A DNA stretch of 64,000 nucleotides, from the NCBI GenBank assembly GCA_964649715.1, contig CAZYTH010000006.1:6341-70340 (forward strand), given 5' to 3'. The position numbers and the translations under genes are program-made. The notes under the pieces are model-generated. The model had not been told where the DNA came from, made no database searches, and saw nothing but the letters and a program-made list of their open reading frames with translations. How positions within the stretch are numbered: position 1 is the first letter of the stretch; the number at the start of each line of letters is the position of its first letter. Source of the DNA: an uncultured Candidatus Saccharibacteria bacterium (lineage in GTDB: Bacteria > Patescibacteriota > Minisyncoccia > Phycocordibacterales > UBA12445). Below, piece after piece: positions 26,181 to 57,148 of the stretch.

Positions 26181-26204
26181 TTTTAATAAATTTGTTGGAA
26201 TAAA

Positions 26205-26747: not shown

Positions 26748-26799
26748 ATATTTTGTTAGTTAATTTTTTATTTAAAAATTAAGGAAAGTAAACATATAT

Positions 26800-27228
26800 A
26801 TGGAATCATCAAAAAACACTAATATTTTTATCGGAATATTTGTAGTTGTTGTTATTGTGGTTGTGTTCATCGCTGTCTCGGGGGGTAGCAGTGGAACAGT
26901 TTCCAGTGGTCTTGTCGTTGGTTCGTCTGGGAGTTCTTCTGCAACTGTTTCCGCATTCTTAAGAAAAGTTTCCGCGATTCGTTCTGTCAAATTTGATACT
27001 GCTGTTTTTGAACATCCTGTTTTAAAACTTGGATTAAAAGATCAAAGCAAGCCATTGTTTGAAGAGGGTAGCGGAAGAACAAATCCTTTTTCTCCGTTTA
27101 GCGGACAACGAGTCGTTGTTAGAACATCTTCAAGCTCAGTTGGAGACAGTCAGTCATCACAATCATCGCAGGACATCATTGAGGCCTTGGTAGAAACCCC
27201 AAAGCCAACAAAAATTTTGTCGGATTAA
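26800..27228 (+). CDS. Membrane-anchored Ser/Gly-rich protein (possible PilP-like)
   Basis: 142 aa. TM helix, then a GGSSGTVSSG low-complexity linker. Sits within the pilus operon. Confidence 0.3.
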   Translation: MESSKNTNIFIGIFVVVVIVVVFIAVSGGSSGTVSSGLVVGSSGSSSATVSAFLRKVSAIRSVKFDTAVFEHPVLKLGLKDQSKPLFEEGSGRTNPFSPFSGQRVVVRTSSSSVGDSQSSQSSQDIIEALVETPKPTKILSD

Positions 27229-27263
27229 TAAAATTTTTCAAAATAATTTTAAAAAGATAAAAA

Positions 27264-28847: not shown

Positions 28848-28902
28848 TTTTTGTTTTGAATATTTTTGTATCTTTTATAATTTTAAAAATTAAGCGAATA
28901 TT

Positions 28903-29964: not shown

Positions 29965-30038
29965 AATAATTATAAAATTACGAATTACGAATTAAAAAAA
30001 TTCATAATTCATAAATCGTAAATCATAACTAATCAAAC

Positions 30039-31244
30039 ATGTTATTCAATTATAGAGCCGTAAATGAGAACAATGAACCCAAAGAAGGGGTTTTTGATGC
30101 CGTTACGATGGATGTCGCAATTTCCTCTCTCCAAAAGAAAGGTCTTGTTATTGTTTCCATAAACCCAGTTGGAGAAAAGATTGGTTTTGCAAAATTCTTT
30201 GAACAATTTGAGGGAGTGAAGATGAAGGATATCGTTATAATGTCTAGGCAAATAGCGACTCTTTTTGAAGCAAAGGTCTCGGCTCTTGAAGCATTCAAAC
30301 TTCTCGCAGGAGAATCCGATAGTGCAATGCTGAGAAAGGTTATGACGGGTATCGTCGATGACCTCCAGAGCGGTCTTCCTATATCTTCCGCAATGGCAAA
30401 ATACCCCGAAGTTTTTACACCATTCTTCGTTTCAATGATACGTTCAGGAGAAGAGTCCGGAAAATTAACCGAATCTTTCAACTTCCTCGCCGACTATATG
30501 GAAAGATCTTACGAGCTCACCTCAAAAGCGAAAAACGCTCTTATTTACCCTGCTTTCGTTATCGCTTCCTTTGTTATTGTTCTTATACTGATGCTTATTT
30601 TCGTCATTCCAAAACTTTCCGAAATTCTTCTTGATATTGGTGGCGAGATTCCTCTTTCCACTAAGATTGTTCTCGGGGCGAGTCAGTTTCTTTTAGATTA
30701 TGGCATTTTCTTGCTTGCCTTGATTGCCGTTGGTTCTGTTTTTCTATACAGATATTTCAAAACAGAAGAGGGTTCTTCAGTTCTTGCTGATATAAAGATG
30801 AAGACTCCATACATCGGTCATCTTTATAAAATGTTTTATCTTTCAAGGATTTCAGACAATATGCAGACCCTGATTTCTTCAGGAGTCGCTATGGTTCGTT
30901 CCGTCGAAATAACCGCCGATGTTGTTGGTTCTGAACAATATAAAAAAATGCTCACAGACGCTTCTACCCAAGTAAAGGCGGGTATTGCACTCTCAAAGGC
31001 ACTCGGCCGTTATGAAGAAATGCCAAGAATATTCATTCAAATGCTGAAGATCGGGGAAGAAACAGGAAATATCGGTTTCGTTTTGAAGACAATGTCCCGA
31101 TTCTACAAGAGGGAAGTGGACACCGCCGTTGATACCCTTGTGGGACTCATCGAGCCGTTCATGATACTTGTCCTTGGCCTCGCAGTTGGTATTCTATTAG
31201 TCTCGGTTCTCGGCCCTATCTACAACATCACCACGGGAATCTAG
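30039..31244 (+). CDS. pilC: Type IV pilus inner-membrane platform protein PilC (GspF family)
   Basis: 401 aa with two GspF-type repeats and 3 TM regions. Synteny after pilB and pilT. Confidence 0.85.
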   Translation: MLFNYRAVNENNEPKEGVFDAVTMDVAISSLQKKGLVIVSINPVGEKIGFAKFFEQFEGVKMKDIVIMSRQIATLFEAKVSALEAFKLLAGESDSAMLRKVMTGIVDDLQSGLPISSAMAKYPEVFTPFFVSMIRSGEESGKLTESFNFLADYMERSYELTSKAKNALIYPAFVIASFVIVLILMLIFVIPKLSEILLDIGGEIPLSTKIVLGASQFLLDYGIFLLALIAVGSVFLYRYFKTEEGSSVLADIKMKTPYIGHLYKMFYLSRISDNMQTLISSGVAMVRSVEITADVVGSEQYKKMLTDASTQVKAGIALSKALGRYEEMPRIFIQMLKIGEETGNIGFVLKTMSRFYKREVDTAVDTLVGLIEPFMILVLGLAVGILLVSVLGPIYNITTGI

Positions 31245-31273
31245 CTTGCGCTGTCGGGTATTTGGAACATGAA

Positions 31274-31358
31274 CGAAACCGGGTTTATGGTTGTGAAATA
31301 AGGATAATCAAAGCCGATAGCTTGTTATCCCTCACTCCTCTAAACCCGGTTTCTTGGT
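31274..31358 (+). repeat. Structured ~85-nt repeat element, copy 1 (terminal inverted repeat GAAACCGGGTTT...AAACCCGGTTTC)
   Basis: About 80% identical to copy 2 at 33048-33133. The ends are reverse complements and could form a 12-bp closing stem. Confidence 0.55.
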
Positions 31359-31364
31359 GTAATT

Positions 31365-31600
31365 GTAATTTCTCTTCGTCATTGCGATCCGCCTCTGGCG
31401 GAGAAGCCCGCCCGAACGACCTCTGTTCTGGTCGGGCGAGGCAATCCAGATTTAGTTTTATATTTCTGTCTGGATCGCCACGGTCGCTCTGCTCCCTCGC
31501 GATGACGATTACCATTAAAGTCTTTACATTTCCCCATCTTTTTTTGTTTTTGTCATTCCCGCGAAGGCGGGAATCCATGTAGTGGAATCTATGTATCTTG
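31365..31600. other. GC-rich, hairpin-dense non-coding island (candidate structured RNA or foreign DNA remnant)
   Basis: Local GC is far above the genome background. Hairpins include TTCCCGC-GAAG-GCGGGAA, ATCCAGA...TCTGGAT, and long-range pairing of TCGTCATTGCGA with TCGCGATGACGA. Both ORFs predicted here are low-complexity Arg-rich artefacts. Confidence 0.35.
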
Positions 31601-31748
31601 CCACCATTCATTTCGGACTGGTTGGAAATTTGGATTTGGAAATTACTTTCTCCTTTATCCACAGCCTCTGTTTTGCTTTTAATGTCCTCCGAGAGTATAA
31701 TTTATTATGCAAGGGAATGTTTCCTCGCTTTTGATTTATTTCGGTCGA

Positions 31749-31763
31749 TGGCGACAACATTGC
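31749..31763 (+). promoter_or_regulatory. Candidate sigma-54-type promoter upstream of pilA1
   Basis: TGGCGACAACATTGC against the consensus TGGCAC-N5-TTGC, with the GG and GC dinucleotides correctly spaced. About 100 bp upstream of the pilA1 ATG. A 7-bp-stem hairpin ATCCGCAaacTGCGGAT (31838-31854) sits just before the start. Confidence 0.25.
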
Positions 31764-31863
31764 CTGCGAGAAGTTTGTATAAAAACAGAACTTCCTTTTA
31801 CCACTTAATTTTTTAAAAGAGTATTAAAAATTAATTTATCCGCAAACTGCGGATTCACAATAA

Positions 31864-32409
31864 ATGAACAAAAAAATTGACACGATAGTGTCATCCCCGT
31901 GCAGACGGGGATCCATGGGTTTTACGTTAATCGAACTCCTCGTCGTCATCGCCATCATCGGTATGCTCGCCTCCACCGTCCTCGTATCTTTGGGTGGTGC
32001 CAGACAAAAGGGAAGAGATGCAAAAAGAATTTCCGACCTCGCAAACATAAGAACAGCTCTTGAGCTTTATTATGATTCCACAGGAACGATGCCAGATGAC
32101 ATATATACTGGATTGCCTTCTGAATTTATCAGCAAGGTGCCAAAGGATTCTGATGATTCACCTTATAAGTATTATGCTTACAAAAGAGCAGGTGCCACAA
32201 ATTGCACCTACTACCACCTCGGTGCCATTCTGGAGGCTGATTCCAATGTCTTAAGAGAGGATTCAAATATAAATTCCGGAGCAGACCCTATTTCAGACAC
32301 CACTAAATATACAAGTTGTGGGGGGACGGCTTTTAACGGAAAAGGCACAAATTGTGCGGGTGATGATGTCTCGCCTAATTCCAATTGTTATGATATTGGA
32401 AACAATTAA
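31864..32409 (+). CDS. pilA: Type IV pilin (major pilin candidate) with a long leader peptide
   Basis: '...RGSMG|FTLIELLVVIAIIGMLASTVLVSL' prepilin peptidase site (G|F, Glu+5). 181 aa. C-terminal Cys pair. Confidence 0.85.
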   Translation: MNKKIDTIVSSPCRRGSMGFTLIELLVVIAIIGMLASTVLVSLGGARQKGRDAKRISDLANIRTALELYYDSTGTMPDDIYTGLPSEFISKVPKDSDDSPYKYYAYKRAGATNCTYYHLGAILEADSNVLREDSNINSGADPISDTTKYTSCGGTAFNGKGTNCAGDDVSPNSNCYDIGNN

Positions 32410-32414
32410 ACAAA

Positions 32415-32999
32415 ATGACTATGAACAACAAAATTAACACAACAGTGTCATCCCCGTGCAAACGGGGATCCAGAGGATTCACCCTCATCGAACTCCTCGT
32501 CGTCATCGCCATCATCGGTATGCTCGCCTCCACCGTCCTCGTATCTTTGGGTGGTGCCAGACAAAAGGGTAGGGACGCAAAGAGAATTTCCGACCTTGCA
32601 AATATAAGGACAGCTCTTGAGCTTTATTATGATTCTAAGGGTGAGATGCCCAAAAGTCTTTATGGCAGTGCTGCGGGTTTGGCTCCTGATTTCATTTCAA
32701 AAGTTCCCACAGACCCAGATGGAAGAAATTATTTTTATTGGCCAATGAAAAGAAGTTCAAGCACGGGAACTAAATGTACTTATTACCATCTTGGTGCTAT
32801 TCTAGAGGCTGATTCAAACGTTTTGGCGGAAGATATGGATAGAAATACCCTTACCTTACCGACAGGAATGGCTGCTTGTGACGGAGACTCTTCTGTGTTG
32901 AACACCGCAGGCTTCCCAGGCAGAAGTGTTGCTTGTGCAACGACTCAGTTGGGTGATGATGATAACAAAAAAGACAGATGTTACGACATAGGAAACTAG
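32415..32999 (+). CDS. pilA: Type IV pilin paralog (tandem duplicate with divergent C-terminal half)
   Basis: N-terminal ~70 aa nearly identical to pilA1, and the DNA includes an ~83-bp 100% identical stretch. 'CTYYHLGAILEADSNVL' is shared. The C-terminus diverges. Confidence 0.85.
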   Translation: MTMNNKINTTVSSPCKRGSRGFTLIELLVVIAIIGMLASTVLVSLGGARQKGRDAKRISDLANIRTALELYYDSKGEMPKSLYGSAAGLAPDFISKVPTDPDGRNYFYWPMKRSSSTGTKCTYYHLGAILEADSNVLAEDMDRNTLTLPTGMAACDGDSSVLNTAGFPGRSVACATTQLGDDDNKKDRCYDIGN

Positions 33000-33047
33000 T
33001 TTCCTCAAACCACCAAACCAGAATCCGAGTCAATGATTTACCACAGC

Positions 33048-33133
33048 CGAAACCGGGTTTATGAGCGTGAAATAAAGACAACCGAAGCCGATAATTTACC
33101 TTCCTTTTACCTCTCTAAACTCGGTTTCTTGGT
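33048..33133 (+). repeat. Structured ~85-nt repeat element, copy 2
   Basis: CGAAACCGGGTTTATGAGCGTGAAATAAAGACAACCGAAGCCGATAAT...CTCTAAACTCGGTTTCTTGG, homologous to copy 1. Confidence 0.55.
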
Positions 33134-33244
33134 TCGTCTTTGATCAAAAGTTCCCCCTATTTGTAATTTGTATACGAATCGTGGTATAATTAGAAGATAA
33201 GTTATTAATTAGTAGTTTAATAGAAGTTATAAGTCGAAAAAAAT

Positions 33245-33703
33245 ATGAAAAAGAAAGGTTTTACGTTGATAGAACTTCTCGTGGTCATTGCGATCATCGG
33301 TATCCTATCATCAGTTGTAGTTGTGTCGTTGAATAGCGCAAGAGCAAAAGCTCGTGATGCAAAGAGAGTTGCAGATTTAGGAGAAGTAAAAAAGGCTTTA
33401 ACATTGTATTTCGATACAAATCAAAATTATCCCGACACTCTATCTGGTCTTATTCCTGTTTATTTACAAACATTGCCAGTTCCGCCAACTGGGACAGAAG
33501 TTTATAATTACACCCCATCAGCAGACAGTCTTAGTTATCACTTAGGAGCTACTTTGGAACAAGTCCTCCCGAATTCAGGAGTTCTCGCTTCAGACAGAGA
33601 TTGTACTTCTGTAGAAGGTGCGACCGCAAATCTTTGCTTTGATGCTGGAGTTGCTGGAGGATTCGATGGAACTCTCGACCTCGTATATGATGTCACTCCG
33701 TAG
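33245..33703 (+). CDS. Type IV pilin (third pilin, short leader)
   Basis: 'MKKKG|FTLIELLVVIAIIGILSSVVVVSL'. An extended -10 TGGTATAAT at about 33182. Terminator hairpin at 33737-33772. Confidence 0.8.
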   Translation: MKKKGFTLIELLVVIAIIGILSSVVVVSLNSARAKARDAKRVADLGEVKKALTLYFDTNQNYPDTLSGLIPVYLQTLPVPPTGTEVYNYTPSADSLSYHLGATLEQVLPNSGVLASDRDCTSVEGATANLCFDAGVAGGFDGTLDLVYDVTP

Positions 33704-33820
33704 TTAAGAGTGTGGCGTTGATTGAATTTAAGAAAAAAACCCCGCAGGGCATCTCGTCCCGCGGGTTTTTCCTTTGTCCTCTCCTCTTAAAACACTTGGA
33801 CTCCCGGAGTCCAAGTGGCC

Positions 33821-34540
33821 TTATATCTCCTCGTTTATTTCTTCCTTTCTGGCAATCATATCCGGCAAATTCCCTTCTGCAAAGTCTTTGTATGCTTTCT
33901 TGTCCTTAAATTGTCCCAAAATAATATCTTTTTCACACTGAATAAGCGGTTCACCGTTTAACTCTTCGGAATACTGTTTCCAGCTAGACCTCACAAACTT
34001 GGACTCCGGGAGTCCAAGTGTTATCTTGTGTACAAGAAAATTTAGATTTATGTAAGAGCTTAAATGAAGCAGATAGGCATCATTTTTTATGTGTTTTGCC
34101 TTGAATCTACCGCCAAATAAGGCACCTTTTCTTCCATATTTTTCGTTAAAATATTTTGAATAGCCCAAAGACATTCTGTGCATAAATTTTTGCACTCCTG
34201 TCTCTTCTTTTTGCACAAGCAGAAAATGAAAATGATTTGGGTTTATGCAGTAGGCGACAATGCCGACCAGTGGTTTTTCCTCATTTTCTTTTTTATTTTT
34301 GTTAAAACTTTTTTGAAGTATACTTCCGATTAAATTAACATTATTAAATTCAAGTATTCCTTGCATGAATCTTCCAAGGTCTTTTTCGTCTTCGAATATT
34401 CGTCTTTTATCAACACCACGATTAAAAACGTGATAATATTCTCCATTTGCGAATTCTGTATTTCTTATTGGCATGTTTGGGATACTACCACTTGGACTCC
34501 GGGTTTCCAAGTACAAAAAACTTGGAAACCCGGAGTCCAA
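33821..34540 (-). CDS. IS200/IS605 family Y1 (HUH) transposase, possibly a REP-associated tyrosine transposase
   Basis: 'YHVFNRGVDKRRIF', 'VAYCINPNHFHFLLV' (HUH = HFH) and 'NEKYGRKGALFGGRFKAKHI' match the TnpA_IS200 fold order. 239 aa, with a C-terminal extension relative to canonical ~140-aa TnpA. Confidence 0.7.
   Translation of the reverse strand: MDSGFPSFLYLETRSPSGSIPNMPIRNTEFANGEYYHVFNRGVDKRRIFEDEKDLGRFMQGILEFNNVNLIGSILQKSFNKNKKENEEKPLVGIVAYCINPNHFHFLLVQKEETGVQKFMHRMSLGYSKYFNEKYGRKGALFGGRFKAKHIKNDAYLLHLSSYINLNFLVHKITLGLPESKFVRSSWKQYSEELNGEPLIQCEKDIILGQFKDKKAYKDFAEGNLPDMIARKEEINEEI
33997..34019. repeat. Palindromic element copy (ACTTGGACTCC-G-GGAGTCCAAGT) inside the transposase gene
   Basis: Perfect 11+1+11 palindrome, translated as '...LGLPESKFV...' within the TnpA reading frame. 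Confidence 0.7.
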
Positions 34541-34628
34541 GTGAAGTCAATTTTTATACAGTAGAGGGGGTGTAGGGGGTGGTGAATGTCCACAGTTTTA
34601 TTTTTATTTTTTGTGCTATAATAATCCT

Positions 34629-35435
34629 ATGGAGACAATTATTTATCTTGCAATTTTTATTCTTGGAACTATTGTCGGAAGTTTTTTGAATGTTGTTATT
34701 CTCCGATACAATACAGGCAAGAGTGTTGGCGGTAGATCTATGTGCTTCACTTGTGGAAAGACATTAAAGCCAAGCCATCTTGTTCCCTTATTTAGTTATA
34801 TTTTACTTCGCGGAAAGTGCGCATTTTGTAAAACGAGAATATCTTCACAATATCCTATAATTGAAGCACTCACGGGGCTTGCCTTCGTGCTTCTCGCATA
34901 CAGAGTCGCATTTGAGCCGATACTTTTCTTTTATCTCACCGTCTTTTCAATATTGCTTATTATCGGAGCTTATGATTATCGCCACAAGATAATTCCCGAC
35001 GGGCTCGTGTTTCTCTTCATCGGACTCTCCCTCCTTCGCGTTGTCGCCGAATATTATGAATTTGGCGGAGATATTGTAAGTGAACTTATGTCGGGTATCT
35101 TCATTTCAGGATTTTTCGCTTTTTTGTGGCTTGTGTCGGGTGGTAGGTGGATGGGTTTTGGCGACGCCAAGCTCGCCCTCGGTATCGGGTGGTTGCTCCC
35201 TTATTGTATGAACGTTAGCGCAATTGTCCTCTCTTTCTTTTTGGGCTCAATCATCGGCCTCTCGGTAATGTTTTTCCAGAAGGTCACCGCAAAGGCATTA
35301 GGCAGGCCATATCATTTTGAAAGTGAGATACCGTTTGCTCCATTTCTTATCCTTGCGACATTCATTACATTTGCCTTCAATTTTGACCTTCTAGGATTTG
35401 CTATGGGCGGTGTTTTTAGCTGTCTTCCTTTTTAG
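34629..35435 (+). CDS. pilD: Prepilin peptidase PilD (A24 family)
   Basis: N-terminal 'GSFLNVVILR', tetra-Cys 'CFTCG...CAFCK' zinc motif, and about 7 TM helices. Start taken at METIIYL. Confidence 0.85.
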   Translation: METIIYLAIFILGTIVGSFLNVVILRYNTGKSVGGRSMCFTCGKTLKPSHLVPLFSYILLRGKCAFCKTRISSQYPIIEALTGLAFVLLAYRVAFEPILFFYLTVFSILLIIGAYDYRHKIIPDGLVFLFIGLSLLRVVAEYYEFGGDIVSELMSGIFISGFFAFLWLVSGGRWMGFGDAKLALGIGWLLPYCMNVSAIVLSFFLGSIIGLSVMFFQKVTAKALGRPYHFESEIPFAPFLILATFITFAFNFDLLGFAMGGVFSCLPF

Positions 35436-35454
35436 TTTGAACAAAAAAGACGAA

Positions 35455-36306
35455 ATGCATAGAGAAAAAAAATTAAAAAACCATTACGGAAAAATTTTTG
35501 CCAAAAACAGGCCCAAATCTTATCTGGCTAGGGGATTTACTATTTTTGAATTGCTTATCGTTATGTCTATCGCGGCGGTGGTCACGGTCATAACTTTCTC
35601 CAGCTTTCCCAAGATGAACAGCACTCTTTCTCTTGACCTTCTTACTCAAGATATCGCCCTTACAATAAGACAGGCACAAGTCTATGGAACAACTGTTTTT
35701 GGTTCTGGGATGTACGACGACCAGTTTAATTCTTATGGGATAGACCTTCCTGACCCTAATCACCCAGATGTAACATCCGGTCAAGAACCATATACGATAA
35801 CCCTGTTTGCTGATATTGGTGTTGAGACAATAGACATTAACGGCAATATCTCCCTAGAACAAAATTATAAATTTGACGGTAAAGTTTCCTCGTCAAATCC
35901 TTGCGGAAATCCTCAAAAAACAATAGATACAACTTATGAAACATCTAACGAATGCGTTGAGCAGTTTAGGATCACAGGGAAGAATTTTATTAAAGCAATT
36001 TGCCCAAAATATAGTGATGGAGATTTAACAAAAGATGGTAGGATAAAAAGGTGTCTAACCGGTAGTGATGATAACTATAAAGTCGCCACTTTTAGTAGGT
36101 CAGATTATATTAAAAATACACAAGACAGACACGTAACCATCGTTTACAACAGGCCAAATCTAAATCCAGAGCTAACTATCTGGAAGAAAGACGATAATTA
36201 TGTTTGTCAGGATTGTAACAATATCGGGATAGTTATTGAATCAGAGGCGGGGCTCAGGAGGGTGGTCGTCGTGTGGTCAAACGGCCAAATAGCAGTGGAC
36301 AGATAA
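35455..36306 (+). CDS. Prepilin-type minor pilin / pseudopilin
   Basis: 'LARG|FTIFELLIVMSIAAVVTVITFSS' class III signal. Large C-terminal globular domain with 4 Cys. Confidence 0.6.
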   Translation: MHREKKLKNHYGKIFAKNRPKSYLARGFTIFELLIVMSIAAVVTVITFSSFPKMNSTLSLDLLTQDIALTIRQAQVYGTTVFGSGMYDDQFNSYGIDLPDPNHPDVTSGQEPYTITLFADIGVETIDINGNISLEQNYKFDGKVSSSNPCGNPQKTIDTTYETSNECVEQFRITGKNFIKAICPKYSDGDLTKDGRIKRCLTGSDDNYKVATFSRSDYIKNTQDRHVTIVYNRPNLNPELTIWKKDDNYVCQDCNNIGIVIESEAGLRRVVVVWSNGQIAVDR

Positions 36307-36332
36307 CATTAGTTATAAAGTTTAGAAAGTAA

Positions 36333-36992
36333 ATGTATAAAGAAAAATATAAAAAAATAAACAAGAAAGCTTTCGACTTTACAGACTTTAGACTTTACAG
36401 ACTTAGTAAAGGGTTTACTTTGATTGAAATAATGGTTGCGGTATCAATATTCGTGACCGTTATGATGATTGTTATCGGTGCGCTTCTTGCCTTAAATGAT
36501 GCAAACAAAAAAGCGCAGGCACTTCGTTCTGTTGTAGAGAATCTCAACTTTGCGATAGAGGATATCTCAAGAAAATTCAAGACGGGGAAAAATTTTAGAT
36601 GTGATGCCGAGAGTTCGATTGTTGGAACTCCATCTTGCAATAATGGAACAAATAAAGTTTATGTTGAGTTCAAGCCATCCGCAAACAGTCAATATGAACC
36701 CCACGTTTATGAGTTTGCGAATGGAAAATTAACACATAAGTATAAAAAGGTCCAAGGAGGAACAACCACTGCTGGATCTTGGATCAACGAAGGTGTAAGC
36801 ATGGTTTCCCCCGAAGTCATATTAAAAGACGTTAAGTTTTATATTTACAGCGATAGCACTACCGGCCAACAGCCGATAATTATTATGAACCTAAGCGGAG
36901 AATTTAACTTGGCTCAATTTGGAGATAATCCCAAGTTTAGAACGCCGTTTAGTATTCAAACGACGGTAAGCCAGAGAATCGGTTCATTCTAA
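36333..36992 (+). CDS. Prepilin-type minor pilin
   Basis: 'SKG|FTLIEIMVAVSIFVTVMMIVIGALLAL' N-terminal motif. Confidence 0.6.
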   Translation: MYKEKYKKINKKAFDFTDFRLYRLSKGFTLIEIMVAVSIFVTVMMIVIGALLALNDANKKAQALRSVVENLNFAIEDISRKFKTGKNFRCDAESSIVGTPSCNNGTNKVYVEFKPSANSQYEPHVYEFANGKLTHKYKKVQGGTTTAGSWINEGVSMVSPEVILKDVKFYIYSDSTTGQQPIIIMNLSGEFNLAQFGDNPKFRTPFSIQTTVSQRIGSF

Positions 36993-37040
36993 AAGCAAAG
37001 ACAATGTTTTTATTAAAGAATATTTAGAGAAAAAGACGTA

Positions 37041-37715
37041 ATGCACGTAATCACATATTTAAAAAATAATTTCAGGAAAATGCTTGCCAAGAGAGGTTAT
37101 AAATCTTGCCCAGCGAGTGGTTTTACGATCATTGAGTCTTTGGTGGCTGTTATGATACTTGTGATGTCGGTTACGGGGCCTCTGGCTCTCGCTGCGAGGG
37201 GGCTTTCATTCTCTACCTATGCGAGAGAAGAGATAACCGCTTTCTATCTTGCGAGTGAGGGGATGGAGACGATAAGAAATATAAGAGATTCAAATTTATT
37301 GAGTCCCGAAAGTGGCAAAGATTGGCTGGGGAGAGACATGGGTGGTAACGGCGGTCTTGGAAGGTGCAAAAATAACCCCTGCTATCTTGATGTTTGGAAA
37401 AGCCCGCCTGAATTAAGAAAGTCTTTTGACGATGTTAATAATGAGACAATTTCTTTGTATCCCACCGATTATTCTCTTTGGGAGTATAAGCTTGGAGATG
37501 ATGAAAATAGCGTAACTAGGTATGGTTATAATTTTGACACATCGGGTAGGACAGAAACTCCAGACCAAACCATTTATTCTCGAAAGTTAATAGTAGAGCC
37601 TATTGGAATACTTGGATCAGAGAATGAGGCGAGGGTTACTGTTATCGTCTCTTGGTATGCAAAGAACAATATCTATCGGGAGGTTATACTAAGTAACAAT
37701 ATTTTTAAACTATAG
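37041..37715 (+). CDS. Prepilin-type minor pilin
   Basis: 'PASG|FTIIESLVAVMILVMSVTGPLALAA' N-terminal motif. Confidence 0.6.
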   Translation: MHVITYLKNNFRKMLAKRGYKSCPASGFTIIESLVAVMILVMSVTGPLALAARGLSFSTYAREEITAFYLASEGMETIRNIRDSNLLSPESGKDWLGRDMGGNGGLGRCKNNPCYLDVWKSPPELRKSFDDVNNETISLYPTDYSLWEYKLGDDENSVTRYGYNFDTSGRTETPDQTIYSRKLIVEPIGILGSENEARVTVIVSWYAKNNIYREVILSNNIFKL

Positions 37716-37729
37716 TTTTAAAAAACCGA

Positions 37730-38275
37730 ATGAATTTTATGAAAAACAAACATCCATATCCCAAAAAGAATAAAGCGTTCGTCCTCCTTATATCTCTGCT
37801 CGTTTCTAGCGTTATTTTGGCCTCGGGACTAGCCGTCACAAGGATAATCGTCCGCCAGATATATCTTGCCTCTGTACAGAGAGATTCTCAACTCGCATTT
37901 TTTGCTGCCGATGCTGGCCTTGAGTGCGCAAGATTTTGGAAAGACAGCGGTGAGACGATTCCATCCCCCCCATCAAACCCCCAGTGTAACGGAGTAGATT
38001 TAAAAAATACCTCAGGTGGTGCCGTCCGTGATTTTGATAATGATTTTGAATTTTATTTTAATATCGGCGGGCAAATTTATGAAAAGCCTGGTGATTTAAA
38101 TGCGGTAGCTCCAAAACTTTGCGTAAAAGTTAAATATACTCCTGCGGGTGTGAGTGGCTCACCCAAGGCCAGAATAGAATCAAGAGGATATAATACCGAG
38201 TGTCTTTCAAATGGACAGCTTTCGGGCGGAAGGGTGGTAGAGAGGAAACTTGTCTATCAATATACAACCAATTAA
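37730..38275 (+). CDS. PilX-like minor pilin (non-canonical N-terminus)
   Basis: 'KNKAFVLLISLLVSSVILASGLAVTRIIV' hydrophobic N-terminus. Last gene of the minor pilin set. Confidence 0.4.
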   Translation: MNFMKNKHPYPKKNKAFVLLISLLVSSVILASGLAVTRIIVRQIYLASVQRDSQLAFFAADAGLECARFWKDSGETIPSPPSNPQCNGVDLKNTSGGAVRDFDNDFEFYFNIGGQIYEKPGDLNAVAPKLCVKVKYTPAGVSGSPKARIESRGYNTECLSNGQLSGGRVVERKLVYQYTTN

Positions 38276-47537: not shown

Positions 47538-47773
47538 TACCTTAATCCACCCGTCTGATTGACAGGGTGGTTTTTTTATTTATACTGTATTTGCTAACCG
47601 CAGAAAGTGGGTTTACCAAATAAGGTAATAAAAATTTTCCCATTGAGGTCGAGAAGACGGTTTTAGCCGTTCTTTTTTATTAAAGAGAACATAAAATCAG
47701 TTAAATTTAGTAAAGCGAATAAGGTTAAAATTAATTATTTTTAATTTTTTGCTTTACGTTTTACATTTTTTAG

Positions 47774-48298
47774 ATGGCAATAACAATAGAGAAGAAGAAA
47801 GAATTAGTAAAAGAGATAACGGATGGTGTAAAAAGTTCCGCATCTACTGTCATTGTTGGTTTTGATAAGCTAAGAATAGAGGACATAACTCCGCTTAGGA
47901 AAAATCTTAGGACACAGGGGATAAAGATGACCGTTGCCAAAAAAACCCTTATGAAAAGGGCCTTTGAAGAGGCTGGGGTTTCGGGTGAAGTCCCTTCTAT
48001 GGAAGGTCAGATAGCACTTGCTTTTGGTGGAGATCCTGTAATACCAGCAAAGACTGTTGCTGAGGCTTCTGGAAAATACAAAGATAAGGTCTATATTCTT
48101 GGAGGAATTTTGGACGGGAGGTTCTTAAACAAAGAAGAGATGGTCTCCCTCTCAAAGATACCAGGGAGAGAAGTTCTTCTTTCACAGCTTTTGAATGTTA
48201 TGAATGCACCTGTTCAGGGCTTTGTTGGTACATTGAATGCTGTTGTTAGAGATTTTGTTTGTACTTTGGACCAAATATCCAAAGCTGAGGCAAAGTAA
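47774..48298 (+). CDS. rplJ: 50S ribosomal protein L10
   Basis: '[37 protein letters not shown]' and typical L10 length. Followed by rplL. Confidence 0.85.
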
Positions 48299-48324
48299 AA
48301 TTAATAATATTTAAGATAATTAAA

Positions 48325-48711
48325 ATGGAAATACCGGAAAAATTTAAAGATATTGTAGAAAAAATAGAGAAAATGAGCGTTTTGGACCTTTCCGAACTCG
48401 TTCATATATTGGAGGAGAAGTTTGGAGTTAAAGCTCAGGCTGCAGGAATGATGATGGCCGCCGCCCCTGTCGCTGGAGCAGGTGAAGCAGCCGCCGAGAA
48501 AACATCTTTTGATGTAGAGCTCGCTTCTGCTGGAGACAACAAGATTGCTGTTATAAAAGTTGTTAAAGAAGCAGTTGGTTTGGGTCTTAAAGAAGCAAAA
48601 GACCTTGTAGACAAAGCTCCTGCTATGATAAAAGAGGGAATGGACAAAGCTGCCGCTGAAGCTCTCAAGAAACAAGTAGAAGATGCTGGAGGAAAAGTTA
48701 CACTCAAATAA
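48325..48711 (+). CDS. rplL: 50S ribosomal protein L7/L12
   Basis: N-terminal dimerisation helix, Ala-rich hinge, and a C-terminal '[31 protein letters not shown]...KVTLK' domain. Followed by hairpin terminator ACACAAAACACACCAAtaatTTGGTGTGTTTTGTGT at 48727-48771. Confidence 0.9.
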
Positions 48712-48815
48712 TTTTATAATTTGAGTCGCAGTACACAAAACACACCAATAATTTGGTGTGTTTTGTGTACAAGGTAACTTCCCATAAACATTTTTAAAAA
48801 CTTATCAGTTTTTTG

Positions 48816-48845
48816 TTTACATGATTTAACATAAAATGATATAAT
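48816..48845 (+). promoter_or_regulatory. Strong sigma-70-like promoter (TTTACA-N18-TATAAT), copy A of a duplicated promoter module
   Basis: Nearly identical to 51303-51331. Followed by a 16-codon truncated copy (MSKFLKIFLLLMLLN*) of the 5' end of the gene that the second promoter copy drives. Confidence 0.55.
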
Positions 48846-48908
48846 GTAAGAATGAGTAAATTTTTAAAAATATTTTTATTATTAATGTTGTTAAATTAGT
48901 TAATCAAA

Positions 48909-51182
48909 ATGAATAAAATAAAAACTCTAATCATTTTAGCCCTGATGTTCTTCTCAGGGACATCCTTTGCTGCATGGTCTCAACCGACAGCTGTTCCTCC
49001 TGGAGGCAACACAGAGGCCCCAATAAATGTGGGGACACTAAAACAAGTAAAGGGTGCTGAAATAGGTGCCACTAAGTTTTGTCTTTACCAATCCGACAGA
49101 ACAACTGTCATCGGGTGTTTGGGGGGGGCTAATACGACTAATTTTCCTTTCATCTATGATGGAACGACAAATAATATAAAAAATACGAACGAGGCAAATA
49201 GTGTTTTGATAAACAAACCGAGGATAACTGATCTATGGGGAAGTGCTTACGAAAAACTTACAGTCGGTGGCAAGGTTAAAGCAGAAGGTTTTTGTTTAGG
49301 TCAAAGTTGTATAGACATAAACACAGGTGGAGCAGGTGACACTACAAACAATTGGTCTGAGGTGATAAAAAGTTTTGTTTCAACTGTCGAAGGACCCATG
49401 GGTCCAGTCGGCCCTGCTGAAACAGATGGTGTCTCTCCAACTAATCCTGTAGGTTGTGCAGAAGGAGAAGTTCTGACATGGTTAAAAGTAGACGGCACTT
49501 ACAAATGGACATGCGGACAGGGAGGCCTTACAGGCCCCACAGGAGCCACTGGAGCGACAGGAACTGACGGTCAGAGGGGAGTACCAGGTTATGGTGTTCC
49601 CACAAATTGTGACGACGGAGAGATAGCTGTTTGGAACGATACCGCAGAAGTTTGGGAGTGTGGTACTGGCGGTGGTGTGACAATAAACAATACCACAAAT
49701 GTTTCAAATGTTGGTGAGGGAACACCGGGTAGAATAATAAAATTCATCGACAAAACATCTATTGGTGATTCTGTGATATCTGAAGTCGGAGGGAATATTG
49801 GAGTGGGGTCTGGTTCTTACTTTTACGCTAGATCATCTTCGAACGTCTATGTTCCTAAAATACCAAACCCAAACAGATGTCCTTGTGACACTACTAGCAG
49901 TGGCGATAATTCTTGTTTTTCTTCAAATCTCAATTCTCAAACAGGTTTTTATTCCGAAAGAGATTTGGGGGAATTTTGTATTGACGTGAATGGTTCCTCT
50001 GGCACATACTATCTTGCCAAAAAACACACAAGAACCAGTGCCCCACTCCCAGCAAAATTAACAGTTGGCGGAAAGATTGCCATAAAAGACGGAACACAAG
50101 GTGATAAAAAAGTATTATCATCAGATGTAAATGGGCTCGCGACATGGAAAAAAATTTCAGATTTGGTTGACTTTAATTTAACAGGCACAGCAAATGCCAT
50201 AGCTAAATATGACAGTACGGGAAAACTTTCAAGTTCTAGTATTGTTTCTGAAACAAAAGGGTTCGTGTATGAACGCATTACTAATCCCTCTGATTTTCCC
50301 CGAACAGCTAGAATTAATTGTGAATGTGACAGAGATATCAACAAAATAGAATGTCCTGATGTTTTTGCAACTTCTCTTGAAAACCAACCAACTTTTTGTG
50401 TTGATAAATATGATGATACTTATGTGCGGTTTTTTGAAAGGAAACCTTCAAACCACCTAGTAATCAAAGACGGAACGCAAGATGATAAAAAGATATTATC
50501 ATCAGATAAAGACGGTAAAGCAAGTTGGAGGTCTTTTTCAGAATTGGGAGTCAGTCTTGAAGAGAAAGATACCTTAGATTCTGTGTTGGGGAGGAAGAAC
50601 GATACTTCTAAAACAGCCAAATTTACAGGAATTTTAAGTGCAAGCAATCTTATCGTTGGTAAATTTCAATTTCCTTTTGGTGCAGGTGCGGGCAAAGTCC
50701 TCACATCTGATAAAGATGGTAACGCAAGCTGGGTGGAACTAGGATCTGGAGAGCTGGGCACTCCAGGACCAAGGGGGTGTACTGGTCCAAAAGGAGACAA
50801 GGGGGATACAGGATTGCCTGGTCCAGTCGGACCCAAAGGGGACACTGGATTAACGGGTCCTCAGGGATTACAGGGTCCAACAGGTCCTCAGGGGCCAGCA
50901 GGCCCCGCTGGGACAGCTAGTGCCATAACAAGCTACAATCAATTACCGAGCGGTTCGTTGGCTGGTTATTGTACTTTTGGAATTACTGATCCAGGGGCAA
51001 CGGGTAAGAGTAATGTTATGGCATACGAAGGTTCATTTACCGGGGATTATGCAATTCCACCAGCGACATGGAGGAACACTGGAGTAGATAATAGAAGTTG
51101 TAGTTGTGAAGCAGGGTGGTTCCCAATGATTATGGGAGCCGACATAGCCGGGTCAAAAACTTATACTTGTATGAAAAAATAA
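48909..51182 (+). CDS. Secreted surface protein with collagen-like G-X-Y triple-helix repeats
   Basis: Signal peptide '[21 protein letters not shown]'. G-X-Y tracts '[22 protein letters not shown]' and '[53 protein letters not shown]'. Cys-rich interspersed modules. 757 aa. Confidence 0.6.
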
Positions 51183-51302
51183 AATAAAATAAACCACAGA
51201 CTCAAAAACGTGCTTATTTAGGCACGTTTTTGATTTTTAATATAAAGTTTTCTGTTTTAAAATAATTTTCTAGAAACATTTATAAAAATTTAGAGCTTTT
51301 TG

Positions 51303-51331
51303 TTTACATGATTTAACATAAAAGATATAAT
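51303..51331 (+). promoter_or_regulatory. Sigma-70-like promoter (TTTACA-N17-TATAAT), copy B, ending 7 nt before the ATG (near-leaderless)
   Basis: TTGTTTACATGATTTAACATAAAAGATATAAT is shared with copy A. The ATG at 51338 follows. Confidence 0.55.
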
Positions 51332-51337
51332 ATAGAA

Positions 51338-52393
51338 ATGAGTAAATTTTTAAAAATATTTTTATTGTTTTTTGTTTGGAGTTTGTCTGCAGGAAACGCT
51401 CATGCTGTTATCGAATTTAATGATTGGAGTTTCAGGTCTTGGGATCAGAGTAATTATTCCCTTAATAAAATTAACCCTCATCCCGATGTTAGGGCATCTT
51501 TACAATTAAATAAGTACATTTATCGCCCTGGAGAGAAAATATATGTAGGGTTTGATTCTAGCCCTTGGGCGAGGATACCGGCATCTCGTTTTGGAGAAAA
51601 TACTTTTTCTGTTAAAACATATTTAGATGGTAATCCGCTCTCTGATCAAACAAGTTTTCATACCCTTCATCCGACCAATAACTTTAGTTCTTTTTGGGCT
51701 TATGGTAGAGGTCGTGTTTCCGAAGACTCTTTGCCACCATTTTTAAATGAACATGGCCTAGAATTTTCTCAAAGTGAAGTAGATTTTTTGGAAGAGAAAG
51801 GCAGTTTTATAAACACAACAGATGTTTTTTCTTTGATAGATGCCCCAAGTAGAGAAGGGGCGCACAATTTAACATTTTATGTATATTCGGCAACAGATAC
51901 TAGTAGGCTTGTAGGTTATTATCAGAAAGATGAACTATTTAAAACAATAACAATACCATTTGAAGTTGTTGTCCCAGAACAGGCTCCAAGTTCTCCCACT
52001 ATTACTTCCAACATCCCTATTGTTTCCGGTAAACCGCTTGGTGTAACAAATAAAATATATACTTTCAACATCACATCAACCGATGTTAACGTCGGTGATA
52101 CGATCATTTATTCGGCTGATTTTAATGCCTACAATACAGATGATTGGAAAAACATATCAGTAAACAGACTTCTTTCCGGGCAGACACAAGAGTTTAAGTT
52201 TTATTGGTCCACTCCTGGAGATAAGGCAATAAAATTCAAGGCAATCGACAATAAGGGGATGGAATCAACTTCCTCAACTTACTATTTTAGAATAAATGAC
52301 GACAACAATATGGAATGTAATTCTTGTATAGGAAATCCTCCTACTGAAATTGAAAATTCCTGTCCTTTGTATTTACAACCAAAAGTTTATTAA
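51338..52393 (+). CDS. Secreted hypothetical protein (Ig-like / beta-rich)
   Basis: Signal peptide 'MSKFLKIFLLFFVWSLSAGNAHA'. 351 aa, no catalytic motifs. C-terminal Cys cluster 'MECNSCIGNPPTEIENSCP'. Confidence 0.5.
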   Translation: MSKFLKIFLLFFVWSLSAGNAHAVIEFNDWSFRSWDQSNYSLNKINPHPDVRASLQLNKYIYRPGEKIYVGFDSSPWARIPASRFGENTFSVKTYLDGNPLSDQTSFHTLHPTNNFSSFWAYGRGRVSEDSLPPFLNEHGLEFSQSEVDFLEEKGSFINTTDVFSLIDAPSREGAHNLTFYVYSATDTSRLVGYYQKDELFKTITIPFEVVVPEQAPSSPTITSNIPIVSGKPLGVTNKIYTFNITSTDVNVGDTIIYSADFNAYNTDDWKNISVNRLLSGQTQEFKFYWSTPGDKAIKFKAIDNKGMESTSSTYYFRINDDNNMECNSCIGNPPTEIENSCPLYLQPKVY

Positions 52394-52423
52394 AATATTT
52401 AGTAAATTAGTATAATATTCAAA

Positions 52424-54919
52424 ATGAATAAAATAAAAACTCTAATCATCTTGGCTCTAATGTTCTTCTCGGGAGTATCCTTCGCCGCATGGACACAGCC
52501 TACAGCCAATCCACCCGCAGGGAACACACAACCGCCGATAAATGTGGGGACAAGCGACCAAATCAAGAAAGCCATGATAGGTGCGACTGAGTTTTGTATA
52601 TACAATAGCGCTGGAGCTGAAGTAAGTTGTTTGGGCGGTAGTAACCCGGACAACCCAACACCTTTTCCTTGGATATTTGAAGGCGATAACATCTATAACA
52701 CAAATACTACCAATAAAGTTTTCGTGGGTGGAAAAAACGCGGATTTTTTAGGCATATGGAAAAATCTCACAGAGTGGACAAATAATCAGATAAAACTAGC
52801 AGTCAACGGAACAATTATTGCCAAAGGCTTCTGTCTTGGGCAAAGTTGTATAGACATAAACACAGGTGGAGTAGGTGATACTATAAACAATTGGTCTGAG
52901 GTGATAAAAAGTTTTGTTTCAACTGTCGAAGGCCCCTTGGGGCCTGTCGGCCCCGCTGGAGCTACAGGTTCTTCCGCAAGCAACCCTATGAATTGCAAAC
53001 CAGGAGAAGTTCTTACTTGGACACAGTATGGTATATCTCCAACTTTACATACGAGTGGACATGTGGACAGGGTGGTCTCACGGGTCCGACAGGCCTGACC
53101 GGTCCTACTGGCACCAACGGACAAATGGGTGCACCTGGTTATGGAGTTCCCACAAATTGTACTGACAAACAAATTGCCGTCTGGAATAGTACCAAAAAAG
53201 TCTGGGAATGCGGTACCTCTGGTGGTAGTACCACAGGCACAGCAAATGCCATAGCTAAATATGACAGTACGGGAAAACTTTCAAGTTCTAGTATTGTTTC
53301 TGAAACAAAAGGGTTCGTGTATGAACGCATTACTAATCCCTCTGATTTTCCCCGAACAGCTAGAATTAATTGTGAATGTGACAGAGATATCAACAAAATA
53401 GAATGTCCTGATGTTTTTGCAACTTCTCTTGAAAACCAACCAACTTTTTGTGTTGATAAATATGATGATACTTATGTGCGGTTTTTTGAAAGGAAACCTT
53501 CAAACCACCTAGTAATCAAAGACAGAACACAAGGAGACAAAAAGATATTGTCATCAGATGCTGGAGGTAAGGCGACGTGGAAGACCTTTTCGGAATTGGG
53601 AGTCAGTCTTGAAGAGAAAGATAACTTAGATTCTGTGGTGGGGAGGGGGAATTCAACCGAACGGCTAGTTTTCTTTAAGGGGCTTGTTGGAATAAAGAAT
53701 TTAATTAGTAATAGTTTTCAATTTGTTGACGGAAAACAAGCTACCGGCAAAGTTCTCACATCTGATGCAGGCGGTAATGCAACATGGGAGAATATTTCTA
53801 GGATTCCTTCTTGTCTTCCAAATCAGTATCTACTTAATGATGGTAGGAGTTGGATTTGTAAGGAAAAAACTTTTCCAAATGTATCTGAAAATGCGCAATC
53901 TTTTAAAATTGCAGCATTTGGTTTACCTTCTATTTCTTATTATTCATACCAAGTTGAGGATCAGGTCTTTGAAAAAAGAGCTACTGATTGGACTTTAATC
54001 AATTCTCCGCTTTCTATCTCAGACGACGGAACAAAAATATGTCTAAATGGGTCCTGTATTTCTAACTGGACAGATATAAGTGGGGGGTAACATTGAAGAC
54101 TTCATGTGTCCATCTGGACAATATTTAAGGGGTTATAGTAACGGGGAGCCTGTGTGTGAAAGTATGACTTCAACAAATAGTCTTTCTTATGGTTCTCAGG
54201 AGTGGTCTGTTCCGGGAACTTATTCTTGGAGTATCCCTAGTGGTGTAACAAAAATAAAGGTAACAGCTTGTGGAGGAGGGGGTGGTGGAGGACGTTCTGT
54301 TTTTATCGTAGCCAGACAGGATTTACACACTGGAGCGGGGGGTGGGGGTGGTAGTTTGGTAAGTGGTTCCGTTTATAATGTATCTCCAGGAACAAGTTTG
54401 CCTATTGTTGTTGGTAGTGGTGGCACTTCAGGAGGTGATGGTGGTATAACCAGCATAGGTTCCCTGGTTTCTTTGGCTGGAGGCAAGAGCTCCTCTCTTC
54501 CATCAGGCGGAACTTGGCAGAATTTTCCAGGACAAGGGGAGATTATGATTGGTGGAAAAGGAGGCGTGAGCGCAGGTAATGGAGGAAATGGAGGTTTTGT
54601 TGGTAACGGATTATCGCCTATTACGACTCCTCAAAATGGATTGTCTTCTTCTTTTGCTGTTGGTGGTTCATTTGGCACAGGCCCCCTTGCTCCAGGTGGT
54701 GGAGGTGGTGGCGCTAGTTTGGGACAAGGAGGAAAAGGTGCGTCAGGCGTATCTTTTAATTATCCGCAGACAAATGATGCCGGGGCTGGTTTTAGAGGTG
54801 GTGGCGGGGGTGGTGGTGGTGTTGGGGGTGCTGATAAGACTGGTGGCTATACATCTACTGGCGGAGGTTATGGAGGAAAAGGTGGAGATGGCTATGTTAA
54901 AATAGAGTGGGGGTTTTAG
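52424..54919 (+). pseudogene. Collagen-like surface protein paralog interrupted by frameshifts, with a Gly-rich C-terminal extension
   Basis: ORF 52424-53098 has the same signal peptide and N-terminal module as 48909. The reading frame shifts at about 53030-53060, where the sequence changes from the 24 nt seen in paralog 1 to 35 nt (11 extra nt) between conserved Trp codons. It continues in ORF 52993-54090, with ~290 bp nearly identical to 50178-50470. A third frame at 54080-54919 encodes a poly-Gly 'GGGGGGGRS...GAGGGGGS' domain. Confidence 0.5.
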
Positions 54920-55069
54920 TTTATTGAAAGATTTTTTAGAATAAAAATAAAATAAACCATAGACTCAAAAACGTGCTTATTTAGGCACGTTTTTGACTTT
55001 TATTACAAATCTTTGTGTTTTAAAATATATTATTTTGAGTTAATCATTTGTTCTAGTAGAATAGACGGT

Positions 55070-56656: not shown

Positions 56657-56790
56657 CGCGGTCGACCGGGATCGAACCGGCAACCTCTCGCGTGACAGGC
56701 GAGTGCTCCCCGCCCGAACGTACCGACGTTCGGTACGGGCGGGTAACCAGTTGAGCTCTCTCTTTTGAAGCTACAACCATGACCGCATTT
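56657..56790 (-). pseudogene. Disrupted tRNA-Asp copy carrying a 36-nt GC-rich hairpin insertion in the D-loop and a rearranged 5' end
   Basis: The 3' two-thirds are identical to tRNA-Asp 56849-56922, up to '...GAGTGCTC'. Then comes the inserted CCCGCCCGAACGTACCGACGTTCGGTACGGGCGGG (56708-56743), then 'TAACCAGTTGAGCTCTCTC...GAAGCTACAACCATGACCGC', which does not restore the acceptor stem. Confidence 0.45.
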
Positions 56791-56848
56791 TCAACTTTTC
56801 AAATACTCTTTAAGCGTGAACAACTTATTTTTTCAATGTATTTTCCTA

Positions 56849-56922
56849 CGCGGTCGACCGGGATCGAACCGGCAACCTCTCGCGTGACAGGCGAGTGCTC
56901 TAACCAGTTGAGCTACGACCGC
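56849..56922 (-). tRNA. tRNA-Asp (anticodon GTC)
   Basis: Reverse complement GCGGTCGTAGCTCAACTGGTTAGAGCACTCGCCTGTCACGCGAGAGGTTGCCGGTTCGATCCCGGTCGACCGCG. Canonical cloverleaf. Confidence 0.8.
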
Positions 56923-57148
56923 ATGCTTTTTTTATAAACCTCCCATCGGCACTCTTGAGATATATTTTTCTCTCACGAGCCTCCTTTCGGGTTTGGTATA
57001 TTTCTTTATATATAATTTTCAATTCATTCATTCGCGAAGTTGTTTTCGTCTTTCCGCGAACATGCTCACTGAAACGTCTCGCTAAATCATTGGTCTGGCC
57101 TTTATAAATTTTACCATTTTGATCTTGTAAGACGTATACAGCGTACAT
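56900..57148 (-). CDS. GIY-YIG domain endonuclease (small, homing-endonuclease-like) embedded in the tRNA-Asp locus
   Basis: 82 aa. 'MYAVYVLQDQNGKIYKGQTNDLARRFSEHVRG' contains the GIY...YIG...R...E catalytic motifs. The C-terminal 7 codons are read from tRNA-Asp 5' sequence. A duplicated tRNA 5' fragment 'AGCTACGACCGCA' plus upstream 'TTTTCAACTTTTCAAATA' recurs at 57153-57181. Confidence 0.6.
   Translation of the reverse strand: MYAVYVLQDQNGKIYKGQTNDLARRFSEHVRGKTKTTSRMNELKIIYKEIYQTRKEARERKIYLKSADGRFIKKACGRSSTG

Follow-up and report, generated by a model that had tools for sequence, protein, structure and literature searches.

Positions 48785-55040 of a 64,000-nt stretch of contig CAZYTH010000006.1, from an uncultured Candidatus Saccharibacteria bacterium, hold two collagen-like fibre genes, the intact par1 and a second gene, par2, that is spread over three reading frames. 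What kind of locus sets two such genes side by side, and is the broken state of par2 the outcome of evolution, of regulation, or of assembly? The answer held here, with moderate confidence, is that this part of the window (the term denotes the whole 64,000-nt stretch) is an array of two tandem units whose genes encode modular surface proteins that are secreted by the Sec route and form fibres, with a history of duplication, deletion, gene conversion, and decay.

Layout and age of the tandem array

The region is a head-to-tail tandem duplicate of one unit that consists of (i) a promoter, (ii) a gene designated geneA, (iii) a fibre gene, and (iv) a terminator, and all features of the two units described below lie on the plus strand. 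The outer edges of the duplicated units are at ~48785 and ~55040. The units meet at ~51264-51272, where the homology around the terminators, with its right edge at ~51264-51270, runs directly into that around the promoters, with its left edge at ~51263-51273, and it is this abutment that identifies the duplication as head to tail. The promoter-bearing blocks (48775-48883 and 51263-51369) are 87% identical (E 2e-30) and the 3′ blocks (51181-51264 and 54944-55027) 92% identical. Repeats of the locus have blastn E-values of 1e-28 to 0, far above chance, and no further copies were found in the window outside the locus. A Logan contig from run SRR11845625, an independent assembly recovered via rplJ as the sole query yielding one, matches window positions 47538-48789 at 100% and stops 3 nt ahead of the repeated promoter block, as a real repeat would lead one to expect. 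The paired blocks bear out the proposal of the initial annotation that a module was duplicated locally, which holds for all of it from promoter and gene start through fibre gene to terminator, while the head-to-tail abutment, a ~1.03-kb deletion in geneA, a G8 run in par1, and the wide occurrence of the N-terminal leader are absent from that annotation.

Both units open with a promoter-like site of the TTTACA-N17/18-TATAAT form recognized initially. In unit 1 this is TTTACA-N18-TATAAT with a TG before the -10 box (48816..48845) and in unit 2 TTTACA-N17-TATAAT (51303..51331), each agreeing with the consensus at 11/12 positions, better than any other site in the region. In both units 6 nt separate the end of the -10 box from the ATG (48852 in unit 1, that of geneA in unit 2), a spacing that suggests leaderless mRNAs for geneA and its relic. 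At the distal end, the almost identical 3′ termini, likewise noted before, carry intrinsic-terminator hairpins at 51202..51233 (unit 1) and 54965..54996 (unit 2), which have the same 14-bp stem followed by a T-run (about -18 kcal/mol and z ~ -7 in each case).

Unit 2 keeps geneA (51338..52393), a 351-aa open reading frame (ORF) with a signal-peptide-like N-terminus. The sequence ATGAGTAAATTTTTAAAAATATTTTTAT begins this complete ORF at 51338 and, at 48852, a geneA start relic in unit 1 (48852..48899) that reads MSKFLKIFLLLMLLN* and ends 9 nt before the par1 ATG. The relic had been described as truncated after 16 codons; the truncation stands, but there are 15 sense codons, and 16 is reached only by including the stop. 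Because the geneA homology of unit 1 ends at 48883 and similarity to the stretch directly preceding the par2 start picks up at 48892, ~1.03 kb and thereby most of geneA has been deleted from unit 1. No family in Pfam, NCBIfam, or PHROG matches geneA. Its residues 224-314 show a weak PKD-like resemblance (4xed_A, E 0.017), and the product is predicted to be a secreted protein in which this PKD-like region is weak. Its association with fibre genes is not conserved elsewhere, the other loci having given one weak match (locus L006), and a large protein of locus L004 has only marginal PKD-like similarity to it.

The fibre genes begin alike, as already seen in the initial annotation, with (T/V)SFAAW(S/T)QPTA in the genes that start at 48909 and 52424. 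The first, par1 (48909..51182), encodes a 757-aa secreted fibre protein and is intact, as had been stated. The second occupies the three frames originally listed for it: piece 1 (52424..53098) covers the signal peptide and N-terminal module and is out of frame after ~53045; in piece 2 (52993..54090) there are 9 Gly-X-Y triplets along with Cys hairpins, a single IxKF...KVLTSD module, and a converted tract; and piece 3 (54080..54919) opens with a Cys hairpin of the family type (CPSGQYLRGYSNGEPVC) and continues into a Gly_rich_2 tip. Pieces 1 and 3 lie in one frame and piece 2 in the -1 frame.

Outside their identical tract, par1 and par2 can be aligned in three segments, for which the proportion of synonymous differences (pS) and the ratio of nonsynonymous to synonymous divergence (dN/dS) were computed in the piece-1 frame before the first break and in the piece-2 frame after it. 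The pS values are 0.53, 0.74, and 0.47, and the corresponding dN/dS values are 0.31, 0.05, and 0.46. The duplication is old, with synonymous sites near saturation, and the recent duplication initially suggested is not borne out outside converted tracts. Since dN/dS stays between 0.05 and 0.46, both fibre genes were long under purifying selection in those frames.

Within these diverged genes lies a tract of 291 nt with 0 differences (par1 50181..50471 versus par2 53233-53523), flanked by sequence of 71-78% identity. At a background identity of ~75%, 291 straight matches have a probability of about 0.75^291. Near-identical internal DNA and gene conversion had both been put forward for this place and both hold, the second range given then (53238-53530) being a few bases off. 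On its left side the tract begins at the border of a ~500-nt module that par1 has and par2 does not. A second, older tract of ~100 nt (par1 aa 124-163) has the same codon at 28/35 identical degenerate residues versus ~45% elsewhere, and a third paralogue, P0125, is a mosaic that is par1-like at residues 1-35 and 113-128 and par2-like at residues 37-68. It follows from the identical tract, the second tract, and the mosaic that gene conversion has repeatedly moved segments among old paralogues, recently in the case of the 291-nt tract.

Two other sources of variation were tried and rejected. For a diversity-generating retroelement, the scanned ORFs of the window contain no reverse-transcriptase domain, and 11/24 mismatches beside the identical tract have A in par1, the changes going both ways and being mostly A/G transitions. 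For a shufflon or other invertible tip switching, the only inverted repeats are the terminator hairpins and chance AT-rich pairs, and no recombinase is found nearby.

Fibre architecture and the leader family

Both proteins start with a Sec-type signal peptide ([TV]SFA, then AW, by eye), which is followed by a module of ~160 aa for which Pfam, NCBIfam, PHROGs, and the sequences of PDB give no match. In par1, the signal peptide comprises aa 1-21 (by eye) and the conserved N-terminal module aa 1-165. An exhaustive profile search finds at least 1,408 cluster representatives at E<=1e-3, most of which share only the signal peptide and AW[ST]xPTxxPPxGN..P[IL]NxG...Q.K, i.e., the first ~55 residues, while the whole module is common to 11 at E<1e-30, par1 and par2 piece 1 counted in. 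In the 149 proteins scanned for domains (the best matches of the profile search plus par1), the leader is fused to Peptidase_S74 (12 proteins, C-terminal), Collagen (5), Gly_rich_2 (4), Shufflon_N (2), and Gp34_trimer (1). Thirty scanned family proteins (P0123, P0127, P0128, P0131-P0134, and ~23 others) end in the motif G-[LF]-I-I-E...G-x-[MI]-W-[LF], which is internal in par1 and par2 and falls inside the 291-nt converted tract.

Genomic relatives occur in metagenome-assembled genomes (MAGs) of Candidatus Saccharibacteria, Candidatus Liptonbacteria, and other Patescibacteria, and all traced members are Patescibacteria. Family genes number three in L004 and two each in L005, L007, and L008, and the paralogues of L004 and L008 share their 5′ ends at the DNA level. 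In five other Patescibacteria loci (L002, L004, L005, L007, and L009) the clusters lie within a few kb of nusA and look like a conserved surface-protein island; the window copy instead follows rplJ-rplL. Some family clusters, L008 also being listed, adjoin the gene for a large membrane protein of ~1000 aa (520-3654 in L004), whose homologues occur in L002 and L008. A surface-protein family, as the initial annotation had it, is supported, and its members are predicted to be secreted. Literature on Patescibacteria collagen-like proteins, PF21722, and Saccharibacteria tail fibres yielded no description of the family. What appears to be new, judged from sequence, is a widespread leader without a curated family, many members of which are fused to phage-fibre-type domains, in recombining clusters.

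Beyond the leader, par1 is composed of short Gly-X-Y tracts and a pair of Cys-clasped hairpins, together with two IxKF...KVLxSDxxGxxxW modules with Cys-rich inserts homologous to P0132 and P0248, a collagen tract, and a head. The collagen-like tract contains 19 Gly-X-Y triplets (aa 614-670, 50748..50918), and the protein passes the Pfam Collagen model (PF01391) with 38 bits versus a cut-off of 27.2, while par2 scores 13 bits, below the threshold. The tracts, initially called long, are collagen-like as claimed but modest in length, with 19 and 9 triplets. The C-terminal head (50913..51179) measures ~89 aa and has four Cys residues (LPSGSxAGxC ... CxCExGW ... C-x-K-K). Heads of this type are also placed after collagen-like or Gly-rich segments in Patescibacteria relatives, and a 303-aa relative encoded right after nusG-rplK in L004 keeps the two ends of par1 but no middle, being made up of leader, collagen, and this 4-Cys head. 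When full par1 was the query, a word-indexed search gave collagen matches alone, over 6-13% of its length (20% for one), and with Gly-X-Y masked it returned only par1 itself and P0123; a PDB sequence search with par1 gave nothing significant.

The tip encoded by par2 piece 3 is of a different kind. It matches Pfam Gly_rich_2 (PF21722) with 40.2 bits versus a cut-off of 24.3, over profile positions 3-225/226, and is matched by PHROG tail-fibre families. The AlphaFold2 model of the tip is confident (pLDDT 86.4, pTM 0.80), and Foldseek relates it to the cyanophage Pam3 fibre (7ypx_A, E 4.5e-7) and the Bxb1 tail tip (9d93_Qa, E 7.5e-6), both with probability 1.0, as well as to many phage baseplate or fibre proteins, to giant-virus collagen-like proteins, and, more weakly, to the ALK/LTK glycine-rich domain. 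Its closest sequence homologue, P0273, belongs to a phage tail module, in which it comes immediately behind Baseplate_J and Mu Gp48, and a PDB sequence search with piece 3 gave nothing significant. The Gly-rich tail had been likened to phage tail-fibre or PGRS-like regions; Gly_rich_2, PHROG, Foldseek, and P0273 all speak for the former, and for the latter there is no match.

State of par2 and competing explanations

The first break (CCAACTTTACATACGAG, 53039..53055) contains 11 extra nt relative to par1, as had been counted initially, and these sit in a Cys-hairpin loop. Adding 1 nt restores the frame to ...YGISPTFTYEWTCGQGG... and yields ...CKPGEVLTWTQYGISPTFTYEWTCGQGG... in the loop, which is to say that the loop is 12 nt longer less one base. 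The overlap 52960-53098 has no homopolymer of >=4 (the longest run is T3) and no X XXY YYZ heptamer, so slippage in replication, transcription, or translation does not explain this break. The second break is a G6 run (54082..54087) right before the TAA of piece 2 (AGT GGG GGG TAA), and one G less joins pieces 2 and 3 to give ...WTDISGGNIEDFMCPSGQYL.... After both 1-nt edits, par2 encodes 831 aa. That two edits suffice, that piece 3 opens with a C-x2-G-Q-x-L...C hairpin also present in P0140 and elsewhere in par2, and that Gly_rich_2 is also found in four other proteins that begin with this N-terminal leader all point to par2 having been a single gene.

As assembled, par2 is most likely a recent pseudogene, and its frameshifts are probably real and not consensus errors. 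Pfam families are matched by some 35 other ORFs of the window, in most cases along the entire domain, and none of these ORFs, including pgk, tpiA, recG, ligA, gatA, pilB, pilT, pilC, and pilD, appears to be split, which makes a generalized indel error unlikely. The alternative that carries most weight, unlikely as it is, holds that sequencing, consensus, or assembly errors produced the frameshifts and that the locus contains two intact paralogues of 757 and ~831 aa. A single base mends each break, the second break lies in a G6 run, and the three frames are open; the locus is moreover repetitive, with the independent Logan assembly breaking at its edge, and gene families of this sort are often heterogeneous in a population, which can corrupt the consensus of a MAG. 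Set against these points are the lack of any other split gene among the ~35 Pfam-matched ORFs, the absence of a run longer than T3 at the first break, and the low probability (~0.0025 by our own estimate) that two uniform errors should fall within 2.5 kb of ~50 kb of coding sequence.

Several observations weigh against a decayed gene in an array of surface fibres. The three frames of par2 are open over 224-365 codons, which fits very recent inactivation or none at all, and consensus errors in a gene that is variable and repeated could account for the frameshifts. Assemblies were queried for the exact sequences of par1, geneA, par2 piece 1, and P0125 and returned no record, and metagenome scans for the pattern of the second break with G5-G8 and for a shared 5′ 26-mer returned no strain variants. 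P0125, a singleton on an 84-kb NCBI contig, is only presumably from the same assembly. For the N-terminal module, AlphaFold2 produced a poor model (pLDDT 54) that was set aside, the N-terminal profile matched no solved structure in PDB, and it is from domain content alone that a place on the surface, fibre formation, and adhesion are inferred.

Phase variation by frameshifting, which the initial annotation had offered as a possibility, is a weaker candidate. It would make the array a contingency locus in which slipped-strand mispairing at poly-G, i.e., the G6 run of par2 and a G8 run of par1, toggles the fibre genes, and we consider it improbable. The G6 run stands exactly at the second break, where loss of one G restores the frame, but the first break has no homopolymer or slippery heptamer and is not at a repeat, so one slippage event, or slippage alone, cannot switch par2 on. 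No G/C run in the 64-kb window is longer than the G8 homopolymer of par1 (49121..49128), which covers codons 71-73 in a conserved CLGG motif and leaves the assembled frame intact; its par2 equivalent is GGGCGG. G7/G8 runs also occur in family genes or neighboring Gly-rich surface genes of L005, L006, and L008, such genes taking 7/12 runs of >=7 across ~189 kb. On the other side, G6 is short for efficient slippage, Gly-rich coding itself enriches G runs, and no variation in tract length was observed.

The phage-fibre likeness of the tip raises the further question of whether the array is a prophage or tailocin remnant with tail-fibre genes in place of genes for cellular surface proteins. The PHROG tail-fibre matches, the Gly_rich_2 fold, the position of P0273 in a tail module, and the Peptidase_S74 and Gp34_trimer domains borne by relatives would suit such an origin. 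It is nevertheless highly improbable, given the Sec-type signal peptides on both proteins, the flanking rplJ-rplL, HTH-like, and tRNA genes among which no capsid, tail, or integrase genes were found, the constant chromosomal place of family clusters by nusA in five other Patescibacteria loci, and a tblastn search of piece 3 against 50,697 phage records that returned no match.

Sites of +1 frameshifting combine a shift-prone P-site codon with a following stop, prfB being the classic example. Programmed recoding of par2, with a -1 shift at the first break and a +1 shift at GGG-GGG-TAA, could draw on the common frame of pieces 1 and 3, the -1 frame of piece 2, and the stop directly after the G run, but is scarcely credible, as 52960-53098 has neither an X XXY YYZ heptamer nor a homopolymer, par1 and its relatives P0123, P0129, P0132, and P0140 are uninterrupted, and two different events in one gene would be unprecedented. 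A programmed frameshift was also considered for the release-factor gene at 57622 and rejected, since that gene simply starts at ATG 57640.

Proposed history, surroundings, and related systems

For the tandem array of surface-fibre genes, the following course of events is proposed. An ancestral unit of promoter, geneA, fibre gene, and terminator was duplicated head to tail long ago, and unit 1 lost ~1.03 kb of geneA, a deletion that put par1 directly behind the promoter. The fibre genes kept a common N-terminal “base” and gained different C-terminal “tips”, namely a collagen stalk with a small 4-Cys head in par1 and a phage-fibre-type glycine-rich domain in par2, and segmental conversion between the paralogues still goes on. 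Two independent 1-nt indels most likely knocked out par2 recently, making it a young pseudogene that can still donate sequence to par1. Once exported, the proteins probably trimerize through their collagen-like segments and stand on the cell surface, with the N-terminal module predicted to be cell-proximal and the variable C-terminal domain to be the distal binding tip, as in phage fibres. Placed behind a strong promoter, par1 would be the expressed fibre, and par2 cannot give a full-length product as assembled. We infer that these are trimeric surface fibres with which the bacterium attaches to host cells or surfaces and that differences between tips alter binding specificity.

Patescibacteria, also known as CPR, live attached to other cells, and little is known of their means of attachment beyond type IV pili. 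The leader family joins a conserved N-terminus to domains that otherwise belong to phage tail fibres, such as collagen stalks, Gly_rich_2 tips, and Peptidase_S74 chaperones. If its members are attachment fibres, the clusters are candidate host-range determinants and candidate cases of domain exchange between CPR and phages. A broader proposal, which we regard as doubtful, is that secreted attachment fibres throughout Patescibacteria swap tips and modules by conversion, with frameshifted copies serving as silent donors and poly-G tracts as switches, and so bring about antigenic or host-range variation of episymbionts. The local events themselves (duplication, deletion, conversion, and frameshift decay) are textbook gene-family evolution and unsurprising.

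The array is flanked by rplJ, rplL, an HTH-like gene, tRNAs, and a GIY-YIG gene. Directly after rplL, an 18-bp perfect hairpin (48731-48770, -31 kcal/mol, z = -7.3) is apparently the terminator of the ribosomal-protein genes and sets them apart from the fibre module. Two tRNA-Asp(GTC) genes on the minus strand (56658-56732 and 56848-56923) are identical over their 54-nt 3′ part, and an 82-aa GIY-YIG nuclease ORF, also on the minus strand (56900-57148, Pfam E 1e-12), overlaps the end of the second; the pair may be a homing-endonuclease-associated tRNA duplication. Elsewhere, the window holds a complete type IV pilus cluster at 24381-38275 (pilM, pilO, pilB, pilT, pilC, several N_methyl pilins, a prepilin peptidase, and a PilX-like gene), with an IS200-like Y1 transposase gene among the pilin genes (33821-34540, minus strand). 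It also encodes, on the plus strand, a 525-aa ORF (18314-19891) that joins a LexA DNA-binding and a Peptidase_S24 autocleavage domain to a full C-5 cytosine DNA methylase, an unusual SOS-type repressor-methyltransferase fusion, and a 698-aa protein (9331-11427) that contains a PI3_PI4_kinase domain (E 1.7e-8), a type seldom met with in bacteria.

Among known systems, Scl1/Scl2 of Streptococcus pyogenes, Lcl of Legionella, and BclA of Bacillus anthracis resemble the fibre proteins in being secreted and in setting a Gly-X-Y triple-helix tract beside a globular domain, and they form surface fibres or adhesins. Residues 613-670 of par1 match the collagen part of the NCBIfam Scl/Lcl-type models (E 5e-11 to 3e-8). 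However, only the collagen tract aligns, with scores of 41.8 versus 500, 34.2 versus 400, and 33 versus 325 bits, and the C-termini of par1 and par2 (the latter ...DGYVKIEWGF) lack the LPXTG or hydrophobic tail of Scl1/Scl2. The N-terminal module, the Cys hairpins, and the IxKF/KVLTSD modules are unrelated to any of these proteins.

Viral proteins provide a second set of likenesses. Piece 3 of par2 is 45-49% identical over ~100 aa to proteins of the Gly_rich_2 phage-fibre type (Pam3, 7ypx and 7yfw; mycobacteriophage Bxb1, 9d93), but the tip ends a cellular protein with a signal peptide in a ribosomal-protein and tRNA neighborhood and is not part of a virion gene. The collagen-like proteins of Moumouvirus and Megavirus (BFVD) also follow Gly-X-Y tracts with a glycine-rich domain (Foldseek E 4e-12 to 1e-10), yet their N-termini differ and the likeness is one between predicted structures only. 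Cellular tail-fibre-like proteins with a Peptidase_S74 domain share the IxKF...S.I.E and G.KVLTSDxxGxxxW motifs and the collagen-like tracts, whereas par1 and par2 lack this intramolecular-chaperone domain.

Neisseria pilE/pilS, Borrelia vlsE, and Mycoplasma genitalium MgPa are surface-antigen families that are varied by conversion from non-expressed copies. The array agrees with systems of the pilE/pilS type in its clustered paralogues with conserved 5′ and variable 3′ parts, its mosaics, its identical converted tract, and the presence of one copy that is not fully translatable. It differs from them in that the known copies number just two or three and that a dedicated recombination signal was not found, and, unlike pilS donors, par2 keeps its own ATG, upstream geneA, promoter, and terminator. 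The locus is neither a member of the Scl/Lcl/BclA group nor a phage gene, and it is of a known kind, that of surface paralogues that duplicate, exchange segments, and decay.

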